A stretch of 10,309 bases of DNA from a virus (Duplodnaviria > Heunggongvirae > Uroviricota > Caudoviricetes), in the IMG/VR virus record IMGVR_UViG_2585427736_000001. One strand, written 5' to 3'. The position numbers were made by a program, and so were the translations under genes. Positions 2,696 through 10,309 of the stretch are shown here, in pieces. The notes under the pieces are model-generated. The model made no database searches, was not told the DNA's origin, and saw only the letters and a list, made by a program, of their open reading frames with translations. Position 1 is the stretch's first letter, and each line of letters starts with the position of its first letter.

Positions 2696-3159
2696 TGAAG
2701 TTTGTTGCGCCAGAACAGGCACCGGAACAGGCGGAAATCATCAGGAATACGCCGTTCTGGCCTGATGTGGACCTGTCGGAGTTTCGCAGTGTGATGCGCA
2801 CTGACGGCACGGTGACGCAGCCGCGTTTAAAGCAGGTTGCGCTGTCGGCAATTTCGGAGGTCAACGCAGAGCTGTATGAGTTTCGCAGACGCCAGCAGAT
2901 GCTGGGGTATGCCTCGCTGGCAGAAGTCCCGGCGGAACAACTGGACGGCAAAAGCGAGCGCATTCAGCACTATTTCAACGCGGTTTACTGCTGGGCACGC
3001 GCCATGCTCAACGAACGTTACCAGGACTATGACGCCACGGCATCCGGTGTGAAGCGGGGCGAGGAACTGGCAGAAGCCAGCGGTGATTTGTGGCGTGACG
3101 CCCGCTGGGCCATCTGCCGGGTACAGGATGCGCCGCACTGCACAGTGGAGCTTATCTGA
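2696..3159 (+). CDS. L: head completion/stabilization protein (P2 gpL family)
   Basis: Start chosen at ATG 2696 because of strong RBS (tttcAGGAGaaagcagcATG); the ORF track extends in frame to GTG 2632, which remains an alternative start. Motifs NTPFWPDVD, NAELYEF, LWRDARWAICRVQ fit gpL; stop overlaps X start (ATGA-type). Confidence 0.83.
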
Positions 3160-3362
3160 TGAAAGTGCGTGCGCATCAGTATGACACGGTGGACGCACTT
3201 TGCTGGCGTCATTACGGGCGCACGCAGGGTGTCACGGAGCAGGTACTGAAGGCAAATCCGGGGCTTGCCGAATTTGGCCCTTTTTTACCTCACGGGCTGC
3301 AGGTGGATCTGCCGGACATTCCGACCACCACCACCGTGCAGACCGTCCAGCTATGGGACTGA
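3159..3362 (+). CDS. X: tail protein X (P2 gpX family, LysM-like small protein)
   Basis: 67-aa ORF, same length as P2 gpX; motif YGRTQGVTEQVLKANPGLAE...LPHG...LPD and C-terminal QLWD resemble gpX; synteny. Confidence 0.85.
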   Translation: MKVRAHQYDTVDALCWRHYGRTQGVTEQVLKANPGLAEFGPFLPHGLQVDLPDIPTTTTVQTVQLWD

Positions 3363-3365
3363 ATT

Positions 3366-3581
3366 ATGACGCTTGAGCGAATCAGCGCCTTTATCACGTA
3401 TTGCATCGCCGTTGTGCTGGCCTGGCTGGGCGATTTGTCCATCAAGGATGCCTCAACGCTGGGTGGCCTGATGATTGGTGTGCTGATGCTGGCTATCAAC
3501 TGGTACTACAAACACAAAGCCTACCAGCTTCTGCGCGACGGGCAGATCTCGCGGGAGGATTATGAATCCATCAATCGTTAA
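3366..3581 (+). CDS. holin, class II (two predicted TMDs), possibly a pinholin
   Basis: 71-aa protein with two hydrophobic stretches (ISAFITYCIAVVLAWLG and LGGLMIGVLMLAINWYY) and a charged C-terminus; sits at the position of P2 holin Y; 3' end overlaps the endolysin start by 20 nt. Confidence 0.7.
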   Translation: MTLERISAFITYCIAVVLAWLGDLSIKDASTLGGLMIGVLMLAINWYYKHKAYQLLRDGQISREDYESINR

Positions 3582-4074
3582 ACGCTGCCTTGTCGGGGCC
3601 GTGCTGGCTATTGCTGCCACGCTGCCGGGTTTTCAGCAACTTCACACCTCCGTGGAGGGGCTGAAACTGATTGCCGATTACGAAGGCTGTCGTCTGCAGC
3701 CGTATCAGTGCAGCGCGGGTGTCTGGACCGACGGCATTGGTAATACATCTGGCGTCATTCCAGGCAAAACCATTACGGAACGACAGGCAGCGGAAGGGCT
3801 GATCTCCAACGTGCTACGTGTGGAGCGGGCACTGGAAAAGTGTGTGAAGCAACAGCCGCCGCAGAAGGTGTATGACGCTACGGTGTCGTTTGCCTTCAAC
3901 GTGGGGACGGGCAATGCCTGCAGTTCCACGCTGGTGAAATTGCTCAACCAGCGGCGCTGGGCGGATGCGTGCCGACAGTTGCCGCGCTGGGTTTATGTAA
4001 AAGGTGTGTTTAATCAGGGGCTGGATAACCGCCGTGTGCGGGAGATGGCCTGGTGTTTACAGGGAGCAAACTGA
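3562..4074 (+). CDS. SAR endolysin, GH24 (T4/P1-type) lysozyme
   Basis: 170 aa; N-terminal weakly hydrophobic Gly/Ala-rich segment KRCLVGAVLAIAATLPGF (signal-anchor-release type); catalytic motif DYEGCRLQPYQCSAGVWTDGIGNT with Glu41 and Thr56 aligning to T4 lysozyme E11/T26; GGAGG RBS 5 nt upstream of ATG. Confidence 0.85.
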   Translation: MNPSIVKRCLVGAVLAIAATLPGFQQLHTSVEGLKLIADYEGCRLQPYQCSAGVWTDGIGNTSGVIPGKTITERQAAEGLISNVLRVERALEKCVKQQPPQKVYDATVSFAFNVGTGNACSSTLVKLLNQRRWADACRQLPRWVYVKGVFNQGLDNRRVREMAWCLQGAN

Positions 4075-4075
4075 A

Positions 4076-4453
4076 ATGAAAAAGAAATTAATCAGCGGGC
4101 TGTTTCTGATGTTATGGATGGCGCTGTTAATCGCAGCAATGGTGTATCCGCAGGGGATTTTTCCGGTACTGGCAGCGTCCGGCGTTTGGGTAGCCTGTTT
4201 GCTGACATGGGTGGTAATTCCGGTAGCACTGGATGCGTTAATTAAGAATGGCCCGCTCTGGCAGGAGTTGAGGGCATCTTTGCTGAAGGCAATTACCCGA
4301 AAAGAAAACGTATTTATCAGCTGGGTGATGCGATTGCTGATTGTCGTAAGTCTCGCCTGGACGGGGTGGGCCATTACCCTGGTCTTTTATCTGCTGACCG
4401 TTATTGCCTTCTGGATCACACGTAACCAGATGGCGCAACAGGTAGCAGCATGA
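4076..4453 (+). CDS. LysA-like multi-pass inner-membrane protein of the lysis cassette (function uncertain)
   Basis: The track ORF 4004..4453 overlaps the endolysin; I take the first in-frame ATG after the endolysin stop (4076; MKKKLISG...). About 125 aa with four predicted TMDs; occupies the position of P2 lysA; stop overlaps the i-spanin start (ATGA). Confidence 0.55.
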   Translation: MKKKLISGLFLMLWMALLIAAMVYPQGIFPVLAASGVWVACLLTWVVIPVALDALIKNGPLWQELRASLLKAITRKENVFISWVMRLLIVVSLAWTGWAITLVFYLLTVIAFWITRNQMAQQVAA

Positions 4454-4878
4454 ACCGGTTGCTGCTGGTTGTGCTGGCGTTATTACTGGCGGCGCTGGGC
4501 TGGCAGACGTGGCGGCTGGCTGATGCCAGCCAGACCATCAGCACGCAGGCAGACGAACTGCAGAGCAAAAGCCAGGCGCTGGCAAAGAGCAACAGCCAGC
4601 TTATCAGCCTGTCCATTCTGACTGAAACCAATAACCGGGAGCAGGCGCGGCTCTATGCCGAAGCAGAACAGACCAGCGCGCTGCTGAGACAACGACAACA
4701 CCGGATTGAGGAACTGAAACGTGAGAACGAGGATTTACGCCGCTGGGCTGATACTCCTTTGCCTGCTGACATTATCCGGCTGCGGGAACGTCCGACGCTC
4801 ACCGGAGGTGCAGCTTACCGTCAGTGGTTGTCCGCGAGTGACGCCGTGTTGGCTGGATCAGGCAGCGCCGCGCACTAA
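4450..4878 (+). CDS. lysB: i-spanin (Rz-like; P2 LysB equivalent)
   Basis: 142 aa; N-terminal TMD LLLVVLALLLAALGW followed by a charged, Gln/Glu/Arg-rich predicted coiled-coil region (EELKRENEDLRRW); an o-spanin gene overlaps its 3' portion in another frame. Confidence 0.8.
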   Translation: MNRLLLVVLALLLAALGWQTWRLADASQTISTQADELQSKSQALAKSNSQLISLSILTETNNREQARLYAEAEQTSALLRQRQHRIEELKRENEDLRRWADTPLPADIIRLRERPTLTGGAAYRQWLSASDAVLAGSGSAAH

Positions 4879-5405: not shown

Positions 5406-5844
5406 ACTGCAGAAAGTGGACGACTGGCTGAGTGCCTTGCTGGCGAATCTGGAGCCAGCCGCCAGAAGTCGCATGATGCGCCAGCTGGCGCAGGAACTGC
5501 GCCGGACACAGCAGCAGAACATCAGGATGCAACGCAATCCTGATGGCAGCAGCTATGAACCGAGGCGAGTAACAGCACGCAGTAAAAAAGGCCGTATCAA
5601 ACGGCAGATGTTTACAAAACTTCGCACCACAAAATACCTGAAAACTGCCGCTAGCGCCGACTCTGCCAGCGTGCAGTTTGAAGGTAAGGTGCAGCGCATT
5701 GCCCGTGTTCACCATTACGGCTTGCGCGATCGCATCAGTCGCAAAGGACCTGAGGTCCGTTACGCAGAACGTCGCCTTCTGGGTGTAAATGATGATGTTG
5801 AGGCAATGACCCGCGACATGATTCTGCAATGGCTGGCGGGGTGA
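5398..5844 (+). CDS. S: tail completion protein S (P2 gpS family)
   Basis: GTG-initiated 148-aa ORF overlapping the R stop by 8 nt; synteny and size match gpS (about 150 aa). Confidence 0.83.
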   Translation: MAELQKVDDWLSALLANLEPAARSRMMRQLAQELRRTQQQNIRMQRNPDGSSYEPRRVTARSKKGRIKRQMFTKLRTTKYLKTAASADSASVQFEGKVQRIARVHHYGLRDRISRKGPEVRYAERRLLGVNDDVEAMTRDMILQWLAG

Positions 5845-5848
5845 TCTT

Positions 5849-5866
5849 TGTATCAGCACTGATACA
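5849..5866. promoter_or_regulatory. perfect 18-bp palindrome TGTATCAGCACTGATACA (TGT-N12-ACA); candidate Ogr/Delta-type late activator site for a PV-like late promoter
   Basis: Sits in the only sizeable intergenic gap (5845..5912) between S and V, where P2 has its PV late promoter; P2/P4 late promoters carry a TGT-N12-ACA dyad upstream. The spacing to the V start codon looks short for a -55 centred site, so confidence is moderate. Confidence 0.4.
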
Positions 5867-5912
5867 AGTTGCAGCACTGCCGCCTTTCTTCCCCTGATGG
5901 CAACCTTTCCCT

Positions 5913-6491
5913 ATGAACGCACAATTAACCGAAATCATGCGCCTTATCACCAACCTGATCCGCACAGGTGTAGTCACCGAAGTGGACAGGGCAAACTGGC
6001 TGTGTCGGGTGAAAACGGGCGACCTCGAAACCAACTGGATTAACTGGCTGACACTGCGCGCGGGCAAATCGCGCACCTGGTGGAAACCGTCTGTGGGTGA
6101 GCAGGTTGTGCTGTTCAGCCTTGGCGGCAATCTGGAAACCGCGTTTGCCCTGCCTGCGGTCTACTCAAACCAGTTTCCGCCACCTTCAGGCTCTGAGGAC
6201 GGCAACGTGACGGAATACCCGGACGGCGGCTGGTTTGAATACGAACCCGCCACCGGGCGCTGGTATGTCAGGGGCATCAAATCAATGGTCATTGAGGCCG
6301 CTGACAATATCACCCTGAAAACCAGTGAGTTTGTGCTGGAGGCTGACCGCACGCGTATTAACAGCGAAGTGGTGATCAATGGTGGCGTTACCCAGGGCGG
6401 CGGAGCGATGAGCTCTAACGGGATTGTGGTTGATGCGCATCAGCATACTGGCGTCCTGAAAGGCGGCGATACAACCGGAGGCCCGGTATGA
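5913..6491 (+). CDS. V: baseplate spike/assembly protein V (P2 gpV family)
   Basis: 192 aa; motifs LIRTGVVTEVD, WLTLRAGKSRTWWKPSVGEQV and the C-terminal Gly-rich SSNG...HQHTG resemble gpV; weak RBS, and the in-frame ATG at 5937 is an alternative start. Confidence 0.87.
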   Translation: MNAQLTEIMRLITNLIRTGVVTEVDRANWLCRVKTGDLETNWINWLTLRAGKSRTWWKPSVGEQVVLFSLGGNLETAFALPAVYSNQFPPPSGSEDGNVTEYPDGGWFEYEPATGRWYVRGIKSMVIEAADNITLKTSEFVLEADRTRINSEVVINGGVTQGGGAMSSNGIVVDAHQHTGVLKGGDTTGGPV

Positions 6492-6847
6492 CGCTTTATA
6501 GCGGGATGAACAATACCAGCGGCAAAGTCATTACTGATATTGATCATCTGCGCCAGTCGGTGCGGGACATTCTGCTGACACCGCAGGGTAGCCGCATTGC
6601 CCGCCGGGAATATGGTTCCCTCCTGTCGGTTTTAATAGATCAGCCACAAAATCCGGCATTACGCCTGCAGGTCATGTCGGCAGTGTATGTGGCGCTGAGT
6701 CGCTGGGAGCCACGGCTGACGCTGGATTCCATCACCATCAACAGCAACTTTGACGGTTCTATGGTGGTGGAGCTGACCGGGCGGCGGAATAACGGTGTGC
6801 CTGTGTCCCTTTCCGTATCAACAGGAGCAGAGAATGGCAGTGATTGA
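6488..6847 (+). CDS. W: baseplate wedge protein W (P2 gpW / gp25-like family)
   Basis: 119 aa, ATGA overlap with V; size and position as P2 gpW (115 aa). Confidence 0.87.
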   Translation: MTLYSGMNNTSGKVITDIDHLRQSVRDILLTPQGSRIARREYGSLLSVLIDQPQNPALRLQVMSAVYVALSRWEPRLTLDSITINSNFDGSMVVELTGRRNNGVPVSLSVSTGAENGSD

Positions 6848-7742
6848 CCTTTCGCAGTTGCCTGCACCGCAGATTGTGGATGTGCCGGACTTTGAGACGC
6901 TGCTTGCCGAACGCAAGGCCCAATTTGTTGCGCTTCATCCGAAAGATGAGCGGGAAGCCGTGATCCGCACGCTGGAACTGGAATCTGAACCCGTCACTAA
7001 ATTGTTGCAGGAGAACGCTTACCGTGAGTTGCTTCTGCGCCAGCGCATTAACGAAGCCGCGCAGGCGGTGATGGTGGCTTACGCGATGGGCGGCGATCTT
7101 GACCAGCTCGCTGCCAACTACAACGTGACACGCCTGACGGTGACGCCTGCTGATAATGATGCTGTGCCGCCCGTTGCAGCTGTGATGGAAAGCGATGAAG
7201 CGTTACGTCTGCGTGTGCCTGCAGCCTTTGAAGGGCTTTCTGTTGCGGGGCCAACTGCAGCTTATGAATTTCATGCCCGAAGCGCCGACGGTCGGGTGGC
7301 GGATGCCAGTGCAACCAGCCCAGCACCTGCAGAGGTGGTGCTGACTGTCCTTAGCCGCGAAGGCGATGGAACTGCAGAAAAAGACCTGCTGGACGTGGTG
7401 GAAAAAGCTCTGAACAGTGAGAACGTCCGCCCGGTGGCTGACCGTCTTACGGTTCGCAGCGCAGAAATCATCCCGTATCGCGTGGAAGCCACTATTTTTC
7501 TCTATCCGGGACCGGAAGCAGAGCCGGTAATGGCAGCGGCAAAAGCCAGTCTGCAGAAGTACATTGCCAGCCAGACGAGGCTTGGTCGGGATATTCGCCG
7601 TAGCGCCATCTTTGCTGCTCTGCATGTTGAGGGTGTTCAACGTGTGGAACTGGCTTCTCCGCTGGCGGATGTGGTCCTGAACAAAACACAGGCGGCATCA
7701 TGTACGCAGTGGAGCGTAACCAACGGAGGAACGGATGAATAG
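6834..7742 (+). CDS. J: baseplate assembly protein J (P2 gpJ family)
   Basis: Start set at ATG 6834 (MAVIDLSQLPAPQI...) preceded by acAGGAGcagagaATG, rather than the track's upstream 6795; about 302 aa, equal to P2 gpJ length; overlaps the W stop. Confidence 0.88.
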   Translation: MAVIDLSQLPAPQIVDVPDFETLLAERKAQFVALHPKDEREAVIRTLELESEPVTKLLQENAYRELLLRQRINEAAQAVMVAYAMGGDLDQLAANYNVTRLTVTPADNDAVPPVAAVMESDEALRLRVPAAFEGLSVAGPTAAYEFHARSADGRVADASATSPAPAEVVLTVLSREGDGTAEKDLLDVVEKALNSENVRPVADRLTVRSAEIIPYRVEATIFLYPGPEAEPVMAAAKASLQKYIASQTRLGRDIRRSAIFAALHVEGVQRVELASPLADVVLNKTQAASCTQWSVTNGGTDE

Positions 7743-8340
7743 TCTGCTGCCACCGGGTTCAACTTCACTGGAGCGCCGACTGGCGCAAACCTGTAGCGGG
7801 ATTTCTGATCTGCAGGTGCCGCTGCGTGACTTGTGGAATCCGGCGACTTGTCCGGTCAGTTTCCTGCCTTATCTCGCCTGGGCGTTCTCTGTGGATCGCT
7901 GGGACGAGAGCTGGACAGAAAGCGTCAAACGCCAGGTGGTGAAGGATGCTTTTTATATTCATCAGCACAAAGGAACCACCAGTGCCGTGCGGCGGGTGGT
8001 GGAGCCGTTCGGCTTCCTGATCCGCATTATTGAGTGGTGGCAGACCGGAGAAACACCGGGCACGTTTCGCCTGGATATCGGCGTGCAGGACCAGGGCATC
8101 ACTGAAGATACCTATCTGGAACTTGAGCGGCTGATAAGCGATGCCAAACCATGTAGCCGTCACATGATCGGCATGTCCATCAATCTGCAGACCAGCGGTC
8201 CGCATTGGGTGGGGGCCGCCAGCTATCTTGGCGAAGAAATCACGATCTATCCGTATATCAACGAAACAATTATTTCCGGCGGCACCGCGCATGAAGGCGG
8301 GGCGGTCCATGTTATTGACACAATGAGAGTGAATCCATGA
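7735..8340 (+). CDS. I: baseplate/tail protein I (P2 gpI family)
   Basis: 201 aa; overlaps the J stop (ATGAATAG); position between J and the tail fiber gene as in P2. Confidence 0.85.
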   Translation: MNSLLPPGSTSLERRLAQTCSGISDLQVPLRDLWNPATCPVSFLPYLAWAFSVDRWDESWTESVKRQVVKDAFYIHQHKGTTSAVRRVVEPFGFLIRIIEWWQTGETPGTFRLDIGVQDQGITEDTYLELERLISDAKPCSRHMIGMSINLQTSGPHWVGAASYLGEEITIYPYINETIISGGTAHEGGAVHVIDTMRVNP

Positions 8341-9839
8341 GCACAAAATTTTATACCCTGCTGACGGATATTGGCGCGGCGAAACTTGCCAGCGCCGCCG
8401 CGCTCGGTGTGCCGCTAAAAATTACCCATATGGCGGTGGGCGATGGCGGCGGAACATTGCCAACGCCGGACGCCAAGCAGACAGCATTGGTAAATGAGAA
8501 ACGCCGGGCTGCGCTGAATATGCTCTATATCGACCCGCAGAACAGCAGCCAGATTATTGCTGAACAGGTGATCCCTGAAAACGAGGGCGGTTGGTGGATA
8601 CGTGAAGTGGGCCTGTTTGATGAGTCCGGGGCATTGATTGCCGTGGGCAACTGCCCGGAAAGCTATAAGCCGCAACTGGCTGAAGGCAGCGGGCGTACCC
8701 AGACCGTGCGCATGGTGCTGATTACCAGCAGCACGGACAATATCACCCTGAAAATCGACCCTGCCGTAGTGCTGGCAACCCGCAAGTATGTGGATGACAA
8801 GGTACTGGAGCTGAAGGTGTACGTGGATGATCAGATGGCAAAACATCTTGCCGCACCGGACCCGCATTCACAGTATGCACCCAAAGAAAGTCCGACGTTT
8901 ACCGGGACACCAAAAGCGCCAACTCCAGCGGCAGGGAATAACACCACGCAGGTTGCGACCACCGCGTTTGTTCAGGCGGCACTGACGGCTCTTATTAATG
9001 GTGCGCCAGCCACGCTGGACACGCTGAAAGAAATAGCCGCAGCCATTAACAATGATCCGAATTTCAGTACCACCATTAACAATGCGCTGGCACTGAAAGC
9101 GCCGTTGTCGAGTCCGGCACTCACCGGAACGCCAACAGCCCCCACTGCTGCACAGTCGGTCAACAATACACAGATTGCCACCACGGCTTTTGTGAAATCG
9201 GCGATTGCAGCAATGGTAGGTTCTGCACCTGCGGCACTGGATACACTGAACGAACTGGCGTCGGCGTTGGGGAATGATCCGAACTTTGCCACGACAATGC
9301 TTAATGCGCTGGCAGGTAAACAACCGCTGGACAATACGCTGACTAATTTGAGTGGAAAGGATGTCGCTGGTCTTCTCGCATACCTTGGAATAGGAGAAAC
9401 GGGAAAATACGACATTCTGCCAGCATCAAGAGGAGGCACTGGAGCGTCAACTATAGCCGGAGCATTGATAAACTTTGGTCTGAGTGATTTAGTGACTGCC
9501 GGATTAGTACAGGTGGAATCTGGTACAGACTTTATTACTGCTAAGATTCCGTTTCTGTCCGGTGGTAAAAAGCGATTCCTGATGATTCATGCCATCAAGG
9601 CGACAATGCCAGCAAATAATAATGGCTATAACCTTACCGTTACGTTCCCGACTGCCTACGATAACGCACCTATACCTATTCTTGGATCAACTGTAGGACT
9701 GACGTCAACAACGGGCGGTACAACAGAGTCAATGAATATTTCATCAGTCACAAAATCGGGTTGCATCATTTCTTCAGCATGGCAAACATGGTCTGAGGGA
9801 CCGGTATATCTTTTAACGATTGGAGGAGTTGCAGCATGA
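8337..9839 (+). CDS. H: tail fiber protein H (P2 gpH family) with conserved N-terminal domain and variable C-terminal receptor-binding region
   Basis: 500 aa; ATGA overlap with I; N-terminus MSTKFYTLLTDIGAAKLASAAALG... typical of P2/Mu-type tail fibers; internal tandem fiber repeats; low-GC C-terminal portion. Confidence 0.9.
   Translation: MSTKFYTLLTDIGAAKLASAAALGVPLKITHMAVGDGGGTLPTPDAKQTALVNEKRRAALNMLYIDPQNSSQIIAEQVIPENEGGWWIREVGLFDESGALIAVGNCPESYKPQLAEGSGRTQTVRMVLITSSTDNITLKIDPAVVLATRKYVDDKVLELKVYVDDQMAKHLAAPDPHSQYAPKESPTFTGTPKAPTPAAGNNTTQVATTAFVQAALTALINGAPATLDTLKEIAAAINNDPNFSTTINNALALKAPLSSPALTGTPTAPTAAQSVNNTQIATTAFVKSAIAAMVGSAPAALDTLNELASALGNDPNFATTMLNALAGKQPLDNTLTNLSGKDVAGLLAYLGIGETGKYDILPASRGGTGASTIAGALINFGLSDLVTAGLVQVESGTDFITAKIPFLSGGKKRFLMIHAIKATMPANNNGYNLTVTFPTAYDNAPIPILGSTVGLTSTTGGTTESMNISSVTKSGCIISSAWQTWSEGPVYLLTIGGVAA
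8889..9332 (+). repeat. two tandem copies of a 74-codon (222-bp) tail-fiber repeat inside H
   Basis: SPTFTGTPKAPT...TTQVATTAFVQAAL...APATLDTLKEIAAAINNDPNFSTTINNALALKAPL (8889..9110) versus SPALTGTPTAPT...NTQIATTAFVKSAI...APAALDTLNELASALGNDPNFATTMLNALAGKQPL (9111..9332); roughly half the positions identical by eye. Confidence 0.75.
9373..9398. other. candidate 26-bp serine-invertase crossover site (gix/hix/cix-like) inside H
   Basis: TTCTCGCATACC-TT-GGAATAGGAGAA: imperfect dyad of two 12-bp half-sites around a central dinucleotide, with the ACC-TT-GG core resembling remembered hix/gix sites; lies at the GC-content break in H. Confidence 0.45.
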
Positions 9840-10222
9840 AATATTATTCACCTTCAATTAATGGATTTCCCGAACAAAAGACTGATGACAGTATTGAGAT
9901 CAGTGAAGAGGTCTGGAGAATACTTCTTAGTGAAATTTACTCAGGCCGGGAGTTATTTAACGATGGCGGCGTACCCGCTACCCGTGTGCCGCAACCTACG
10001 CAAGAACAAGTAATTGCAGCCGCAGAAAATGAGCGCCAACGATTGCTGAATTATGCTGATACCGTAATGCTCGACTGGCGTACAGAATTGATGCTGGGTG
10101 AAATCAGCGACGCCAACAGGGCTAAATTGTCGGCGTGGCTGGCTTATAAAAATCAAGTTAAGTCGGTTGATGTGACAACTGACCCTGAGCATGTTAACTG
10201 GCCTATTCCCCCGGAGGCGTAG
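9836..10222 (+). CDS. G: tail fiber assembly protein / chaperone (P2 gpG / Mu U / Tfa family)
   Basis: 128 aa; ATGA overlap with H; C-terminus ...KLSAWLAYKNQVKSVDVTTDPEHVNWPIPPEA is the conserved tail-fiber-assembly C-terminal motif; AT-rich like the H 3' end. Confidence 0.85.
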   Translation: MKYYSPSINGFPEQKTDDSIEISEEVWRILLSEIYSGRELFNDGGVPATRVPQPTQEQVIAAAENERQRLLNYADTVMLDWRTELMLGEISDANRAKLSAWLAYKNQVKSVDVTTDPEHVNWPIPPEA

Positions 10223-10309
10223 GCCATTCAATATCTGGCGCACCGGAAGTATCGACCAGTTCCAGTGCGTCCAGATAATCCAGCCACGAATTATATTGCG
10301 CCAGTTCCT
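10203..10309 (-). CDS. 3' end (C-terminal 34 codons) of a second, convergent tail fiber assembly gene; 5' part lies beyond the window
   Basis: Reverse-complement translation of 10309..10206 gives ELAQYNSWLDYLDALELVDTSGAPDIEWPTPPGE followed by stop (10205..10203), the same C-terminal motif family as G; not in the ORF track because no start codon lies within the window. Confidence 0.6.
   Translation of the reverse strand, partial: ELAQYNSWLDYLDALELVDTSGAPDIEWPTPPGE

Follow-up and report, generated by a model that had tools for sequence, protein, structure and literature searches.

Gene content of the window

The window analysed here is a stretch of 10,309 bases and comprises the entire NCBI contig JOQF01000055.1 of assembly GCA_000713945.1. 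Judged by ORF layout and Pfam content it represents a P2-family late region, encoding a terminase small subunit, L, X, a holin, a lysozyme, LysA/B/C, R, S, V, W, J, I, H and G. The order V-W-J-I-H-G is kept in the window as well as in sibling contigs, with H and G forming the fibre and chaperone pair known from P2. Escherichia phage 500465-1 and several Klebsiella P2-like phages cover 92% of the window at 96–96.5% identity, and the uncovered 8% is, at the DNA level, the stretch encoding the fibre tip together with G. Over the initial 1,071 nt of H, phage Cartapus (Peduoviridae, Elveevirus) reaches 99.5% identity. Five or more contigs from independent samples carry the exact 500-aa H protein, and their sources name E. 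coli.

The tail-fibre gene H spans 8337–9839 on the plus strand and encodes 500 aa. It is followed on the same strand by G (9836–10222, 128 aa), the start of which overlaps the H stop (ATGA). The product of G is a tail-fibre assembly chaperone, matching PF02413 (Caudo_TAP, E 2e-19) and phrog_188 (E 5e-33). A second chaperone gene, G', lies convergently on the minus strand, and only its 3' end is present in the window (10203–10309; 34 codons and a stop), as the gene is cut by the contig end. It is a Caudo_TAP gene in loci L006 and L007. G and G' overlap by 20 nt, at 10203–10222.

Constant and variable parts of the tail fibre

Two parts can be distinguished in H. The constant part, Hc (8337–9372, plus strand, 345 aa), has an N-terminal tail-collar domain (PF12571 over residues 1–150, E 3e-65) followed by two fibre repeats of about 67 aa, located at approximately 8907–9107 and 9129–9329 and 61% identical at the amino acid level over 67 residues. 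Its GC content is 0.554 and its GC3 0.589. Hc matches 408 phage records, with up to 100% amino acid identity to Escherichia phage Cartapus.

The variable tip, Hv (9387–9839, plus strand, 150 aa and a stop), is presumed to be the receptor-binding part and has a GC3 of 0.35. A tblastn search with Hv gave zero matches in 50,697 phage records and zero matches in 72,556 plasmid records, the latter providing no link to plasmid prophages of the P1/p15B type. Among 1.84 billion representatives, the relatives of Hv comprised one close family and about four remote ones, similar over the distal domain. Against the Gp53-like_C profile (PF21882) Hv scored 18.3 bits, which is below the cut-off of 24.9 (E 0.0034; profile positions 14–83 of 84), while one of its remote relatives, P0040, is a clear member of that family (E 5e-13). 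The sub-threshold match and the remote relative suggest that Hv is a divergent Gp53-like tip, and we have not filed it as a member. A structure prediction from a shallow alignment of seven sequences reached a mean pLDDT of 44, too poor for a fold search.

G directly follows Hv at every locus that bears Hv. Within the phage records G reaches at most 54% identity, the best match being Salmonella phage SEN34. An identical G protein is encoded on 189 contigs with Salmonella enterica, E. coli or Enterobacteriaceae as source names; for the exact 500-aa H the number is five.

Crossover sites, second cassette and invertase

A 26-bp sequence, TTCTCGCATACC-TT-GGAATAGGAGAA, is found at the junction of Hc and Hv (9373–9398, plus strand). 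It forms an imperfect inverted repeat of the layout 12-2-12, with the core TT at 9385–9386, and resembles the gix, cix and hix crossover sites. The site lies in frame within H, where it encodes LLAYLGIGE, and it occurs once in the window and in none of 200 shuffles. Its layout is identical to that of Mu gixL, TTATCCAAAACC-TC-GGTTTACAGGAA, as taken from the annotated G-segment boundary of the Mu record. The inner half-site GGAATAGGAGAA differs from the common GGTTTGGGAGAA at three positions, and with such a degenerate half-site the activity could be reduced.

Because the contig ends within G', the invertase and the second site fall outside the window, and we infer both from siblings with identical H. 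Two contigs, L005 (a Logan assembly) and L008 (JOQG01000091), carry the identical 500-aa H and extend past the window end. In both of them G is followed by G', a tip ORF on the minus strand, an inverted site, a gene for a 188-aa protein with Resolvase and HTH_7 domains, and the tail-sheath gene. At full length G' encodes 143 aa (PF02413, E 2.5e-34). The tip ORF, Hv', is promoterless, encodes 132 aa and contains a Gp53-like_C domain that, at 37.7 bits, passes the PF21882 threshold of 24.9; BLASTP detected no significant similarity between Hv and this alternative tip. The partner site, TTCTCCTAAACC-AA-CGTTTATGAAAA, is inverted, has a complementary core and is located just upstream of the invertase gene in L005 and L008 (8646–8671 in L005, core AA on the same strand). 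The 188-aa invertase matches PF00239 (E 2e-53) and PF02796 (E 1e-15), and aligns with Mu Gin (PDB 3UJ3) over residues 1–184 (E 8e-93). The site pairs of three further loci, L002–L004, were found by a scan that scores half-sites; a repeat search had missed them because the two sites are too divergent.

The enhancers of Hin, Gin and Cin contain two Fis sites spaced 48 bp. A degenerate Fis consensus is matched at positions 23 and 71 of the gene in six out of six invertase genes, including Mu gin, although the consensus is weak (about one match per 128 positions) and coding conservation may explain the matches.

The arrangement refines the earlier note's reading of H and G. The cassette of the window appears to be one half of an invertible segment, with the other half and the invertase gene predicted past the contig end.

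Evidence for inversion

Recombination at both site cores would keep the reading frame and yield a predicted H' of 468 aa that ends in the Gp53-like tip. The predicted junction between Hc and Hv' was found at full length in 32 complete E. coli genomes, at 97–98.3% identity to a chimeric query of 301 nt. In two loci that were inspected, L019 and L020, the G'-Hv' cassette occupies the expressed position on a backbone of the window type.

Both orientations of the window cassette are known from comparison between genomes. In the e14/Mu-like element L014 the window cassette is fused to the constant part, giving a fibre of 247 aa. In the e14-like elements L015 and L018 an Hv of the window type is instead an orphan beside the invertase, and a Gp53-like tip is fused to the constant part, giving a fibre of 215 aa. 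When L014 is aligned with L015, a flank of 5.2 kb matches in reversed orientation and the segment 5550–7165 in the same orientation, with the junctions at the site cores. From these alignments, L014 and L015/L018 are inversion isomers of each other. The 'off' position of the window-type cassette was seen only in L015 and L018; beside an invertase of the P2 type it gave no full-length match in the complete E. coli genomes, only three of which carry the window-type cassette at all. Inversion has been shown experimentally in P2-like prophages of E. coli, EPEC (PMC4272514). Furthermore, the annotation of Cartapus includes a 'Mu phage Gin invertase homolog'.

The following mechanism may be proposed. 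Upstream of the site, Hc forms the conserved fibre shaft and has the composition of the backbone, and downstream of it lies the low-GC cassette of Hv and G. The second cassette, G' and the promoterless Gp53-like tip, would face the opposite way and be followed by the inverted site and the gene of the Gin-like serine invertase. The invertase would cut both 2-bp cores, with Fis of the host occupying an enhancer within the 5' end of the gene. The cut segment would then rotate, so that Hc is fused in frame either to Hv (the 500-aa H, made with G) or to Hv' (the 468-aa H, made with G'). With two alternative fusions, a population of lysogens would release phage with two receptor specificities. Swapping of the fibre tip along with its chaperone is a well-known phage route to a change of host range. 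On the strength of gene order, sites and isomers, the window cassette appears to be one half of a host-range switch of the Din family, the effect on host range being a prediction.

Exchange of the cassette between prophage backbones

Similarity between the window and its backbone relatives (Cartapus, 500465-1 and Klebsiella P2-like phages) is 96–99.5% up to 9398–9407, and there is none from there until about 10191. Klebsiella phage KP12 illustrates this pattern. It is 96.8% identical to the window as far as 9398, where the site ends, and matches again only from 10191, within the overlapping 3' ends of G and G'. Aligned to L005, KP12 is similar from L005 position 7855, which corresponds to window position 10191, and stays at 97.3% identity through G', Hv', the right site and the invertase. 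The right-hand joint of the exchanged cassette thus lies at 10191–10222 (no strand), in the conserved chaperone 3' ends, with KP12 similarity back from 10191.

The tip and G were found as a cassette in three backbones besides that of the window, two of them other P2-like types and one e14/Mu-like. In L004 (e14-like, with pinE), L013 (P2-like, with an H of 528 aa) and L014 (e14-like) the match to the window begins at 9373 or 9374 and amounts to 96.5–99.8% identity, the highest value being that of L014 (99.8%). In L015 and L018 the first matching position is 9385, that of the core dinucleotide. L009 and L017, representing another P2-like type with an H of 426 aa, carry the cassette at 93–94% identity, and here similarity already starts before the site, at 9224 and 9113, respectively. 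The earlier note had read the 3' end of H plus G as an exchanged cassette, and its recurrence at 94–99.8% identity in unrelated backbones, at a place where the backbone relatives do not match, agrees with that reading. So does the difference in relatives that it had anticipated for the two parts of H, as hundreds of phage records match Hc, none matches the tip and G has only distant counterparts among them.

These distributions show transfer of the Hv-G unit among four or more prophage backbones, in E. coli and, going by the source names for identical G, in Salmonella. With breakpoints at the site core and at the chaperone 3' ends, the unit of exchange covers approximately 9385–10191 of the window. 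L002 and L003 keep Hv-G but carry different Hv' tips, which indicates that the partner half-segment was swapped independently. By comparison, each half-segment is also a unit of evolutionary exchange, bounded by the site core and the conserved 3' end of its chaperone gene.

An alternative account is that the prophage gained the tip plus G by homologous or illegitimate recombination as a plain mosaic joint, with the 26-bp sequence only a conserved microhomology linker and with inversion lost, or never present, in the window prophage. The position of the right-hand joint, near 10191 in conserved chaperone 3' ends and not at a recombination site, is compatible with such a history, and it implies that at least one of the two crossovers for a cassette swap was homologous. 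The degenerate inner half-site points in the same direction, as does the result that complete genomes did not show the window-type cassette 'off' on the backbone of the window. However, the siblings combine an intact invertase of the Gin kind with a partner site whose core matches and with an in-frame alternative tip; the e14-like elements show the cassette, with the same inner half-site, in both orientations and with junctions at the core; and the partner cassette is fused to the same Hc in the 32 genomes mentioned above. Intact parts and isomers together make a frozen joint in the window prophage unlikely, and we give this account only a slim chance. The boundary of the exchanged cassette is more than a mosaic joint, being a site-specific recombination site.

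It may also be speculated that crossover sites provide docking points where unrelated prophages residing in the same cell exchange cassettes in trans, loosely resembling an integron. The single hint comes from GCA_014106295.1, where co-resident P2-like and e14-like prophages share a 100% identical segment of 1.2 kb between unrelated flanks. Homologous gene conversion explains this segment equally well, and exchange in trans seems rather doubtful. If it does occur, a pool of low-GC tips with their chaperones would circulate across P2-like and e14/Mu-like elements, and Hv would also recognise an uncharacterised receptor.

Composition step at the crossover site

The earlier note had described a fall in GC from four 60-nt samples counted by hand, and recomputation gave exactly the same values (0.567, 0.500, 0.417 and 0.317). 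A likelihood scan for a single change point over the whole window placed the change at 9272–9316, where the GC content falls from 0.565 to 0.463. This change had a log-likelihood ratio of 19.5, against a mean of 2.5 and a maximum of 10.8 for the null distribution (200 shuffles of 30-nt blocks). The step that had been proposed near 9350 is thus significant. Its support interval of 2 units spans 9142–9464 (no strand), a width which means that the step is real but that composition alone places it only within about 150 nt. The best composition estimate falls 60–100 nt upstream of the crossover site, with the site still within the support interval.

Codon usage, which had been proposed as a further check, showed the same step, with GC3 falling from 0.59 to 0.38. 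The change point of GC3 is 9344, and GC3 is 0.589 in H from 8337 to 9335, 0.351 in H from 9336 to 9839, and 0.442 in G, whereas GC2 goes up slightly across the step, from 0.483 to 0.524. As GC3 falls while GC2 rises, the shift is one of codon usage and not of amino acid composition. Of the features that the step had been said to adjoin, the fibre repeats are real, the second of them ending at about 9329, and a 26-bp gix-like crossover site lies within the support interval.

We consider it very probable (roughly 90%) that the window is the late region (head, lysis and tail) of a P2-family prophage of E. coli resembling Elveevirus, and that the GC step is the left edge of an invertible segment of the Din family (Gin/Cin/Pin/Hin type) that starts at the 26-bp crossover site within H.

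A GC drop unrelated to transfer, caused by the amino acid composition of the tip, by functional constraint or by chance, would be in keeping with the frequent richness of fibre tips in Ser, Thr, Asn and Gly, and with other GC dips in the window. Against this, the drop is concentrated in GC3 (from 0.59 to 0.35), the likelihood ratio exceeds that of 200 out of 200 block shuffles, and similarity to all backbone relatives stops at the same place. Composition or chance as the cause of the step is ruled out by GC3, the shuffles and the coincident homology breaks, and the explanation as a whole is scarcely credible. An assembly chimera, in which the contig would combine, across a repeat, the fibre shaft from one prophage with the tip from a different one, has next to no probability: the contig does end within a repeated gene and that of a second assembly stops at the identical base, but the identical H recurs on independent contigs, and chimerism is ruled out by complete or near-complete genomes with the same H-G arrangement at 96–97.6% identity (L002, L003, L010–L012 and L016).

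In L005 the GC content is 0.456 in the invertible segment, compared with 0.551 in Hc, 0.508 in the invertase gene and 0.564 in the tail-sheath gene. The best-fitting low-GC block of this contig, 6980–9400, comprises the segment, the invertase gene and a short spacer after the invertase. Low GC is also found in KP12, which has different cassettes (0.491 vs 0.563), in L002, L003, L009 and L014 (about 0.45), and in the G segment of Mu (0.452 vs 0.508 upstream). Since the segments of KP12 and Mu share it, low GC characterises modules of this class in general and is not peculiar to one acquisition. It probably reflects a shared and fast-circulating pool of cassettes that has not equilibrated with any single backbone. 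Further GC dips occur elsewhere in the window, for example values of 0.505–0.53 at 4001–4400.

Comparison with known invertible systems

The organisation resembles that of the Mu G segment and Gin, with its S/U and S'/U' pairs, in having a constant part, a site within the ORF, a tip with its chaperone, a convergent chaperone with a promoterless tip, an inverted site and an invertase. The likeness extends to 12-2-12 sites with complementary cores, to an invertase that aligns with Gin over 184 residues, and to a segment with GC below that of its flank. The weak Fis consensus is also matched at the same two positions of both invertase genes, 48 bp apart, which may simply be due to coding conservation. 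The backbone of the window, however, belongs to the P2 family (Peduoviridae). Its segment is about 1.6 kb, whereas that of Mu is 3 kb, and the core dinucleotide is TT here and TC in Mu. Furthermore, after the site the tips measure about 150 and 118 aa, far less than in Mu, and at the level tested they show no relationship to Mu Sv and Sv'.

The P segment of e14 with PinE shares the very cassette of the window, as the same Hv-G is found at 96.5–99.8% nucleotide identity near invertases of the pinE type (L004, L014, L015 and L018). Together with the C segment of P1 (Cin) and Min of p15B, e14 is a classic case of fibre-tip sharing between unrelated phages, as reportedly described in 1992 by Sandmeier, Iida and Arber and by Haggard-Ljungquist et al. 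These systems have a constant part and a baseplate without relationship to those of the window (the Mu gp45–48 type as opposed to V/W/J/I of P2), and Hv was absent from all 72,556 plasmid records searched. The invertible loci of P2-like elements (EPEC E2348/69, Cartapus, 500465-1 and Klebsiella KP12) share the backbone family, Hc with up to 100% amino acid identity, the sites and the invertase. They differ from the window in that the expressed position holds other cassettes of tip and chaperone.

Systems of this kind are thus already known, and the tip alone is unusual here, having no homologue among the 50,697 phage records. As this tip is absent from sequenced phages, engineered phages or tailocins might draw a new receptor specificity from it. 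The locus offers a nucleotide-level example of how host-range modules are shuffled in temperate phages and leaves current understanding unchanged; one 26-bp site would serve both as the switch point of programmed inversion and as the evolutionary joint for the trading of cassettes among unrelated prophages. The annotation of such genes falls short, with labels like 'phage tail protein' or 'hypothetical protein', and loci of this type break short-read assemblies.

Distribution of the cassette

The cassette of Hv (the low-GC fibre tip) and its chaperone G is present in two unrelated prophages of a single genome, GCA_014106295.1, one of them P2-like (L013) and the other e14/Mu-like (L014). Across about 1.2 kb comprising G, the convergent second chaperone G' and the alternative tip Hv' (locus coordinates about 5900–7100) the two copies are 100% identical, with unrelated flanks, and the sequence differences between them are found inside Hv and in the invertase gene. 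Such identity suggests that prophages residing in one genome have recently exchanged this DNA or undergone gene conversion. The e14-like element with the cassette in strain USMARC-49610 has an insertion of the IS3 family (L004 7664–8826) immediately after its pinE gene.

The first 40 or so residues of Hv (window 9387–9500, GIGETGKYDILPASRGGTGASTIAGALINFGL) have matches in many otherwise unrelated fibre proteins, and frequently several matches within a single fibre protein. Judged from these matches, this start of the tip is a short and widespread fibre motif, distinct from the rare distal domain.

Contig ends and database records

The contigs JOQF01000055 (window 10309) and JNMY01000059 (L007 7699) come from independent assemblies and stop at the identical base within G'. 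Short-read assemblers break contigs in this way where a repeat or an invertible region begins or ends. Partial copies of this stretch are present in many E. coli genomes, up to 11 per genome.

The record of the Klebsiella phage KP12 (OM835953, L001), a relative of the backbone, is placed in Vequintavirinae by its taxonomy line. The clone content, with V, W, J, I and H genes and a DNA invertase, is plainly that of a P2-like element, and the record is probably a co-isolated prophage sequence placed under the wrong lineage.

Other variable regions of the backbone

Between the tail genes S and V the window has merely a short spacer (5844–5913). At this position the sibling contig L005 encodes an additional ORF of 176 aa (2951–3481, minus strand) without a Pfam match, and L019, a locus on the same backbone, has a DUF6216 gene (1–74). 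The S–V interval thus looks like a variable cargo hotspot in P2-like phages.

A second GC dip (0.505–0.53), weaker than the first, was observed over the LysA/LysB region at window 4001–4500, where the GC skew is strongly positive, reaching 0.33. The dip may represent another mosaic piece, within the lysis cassette.
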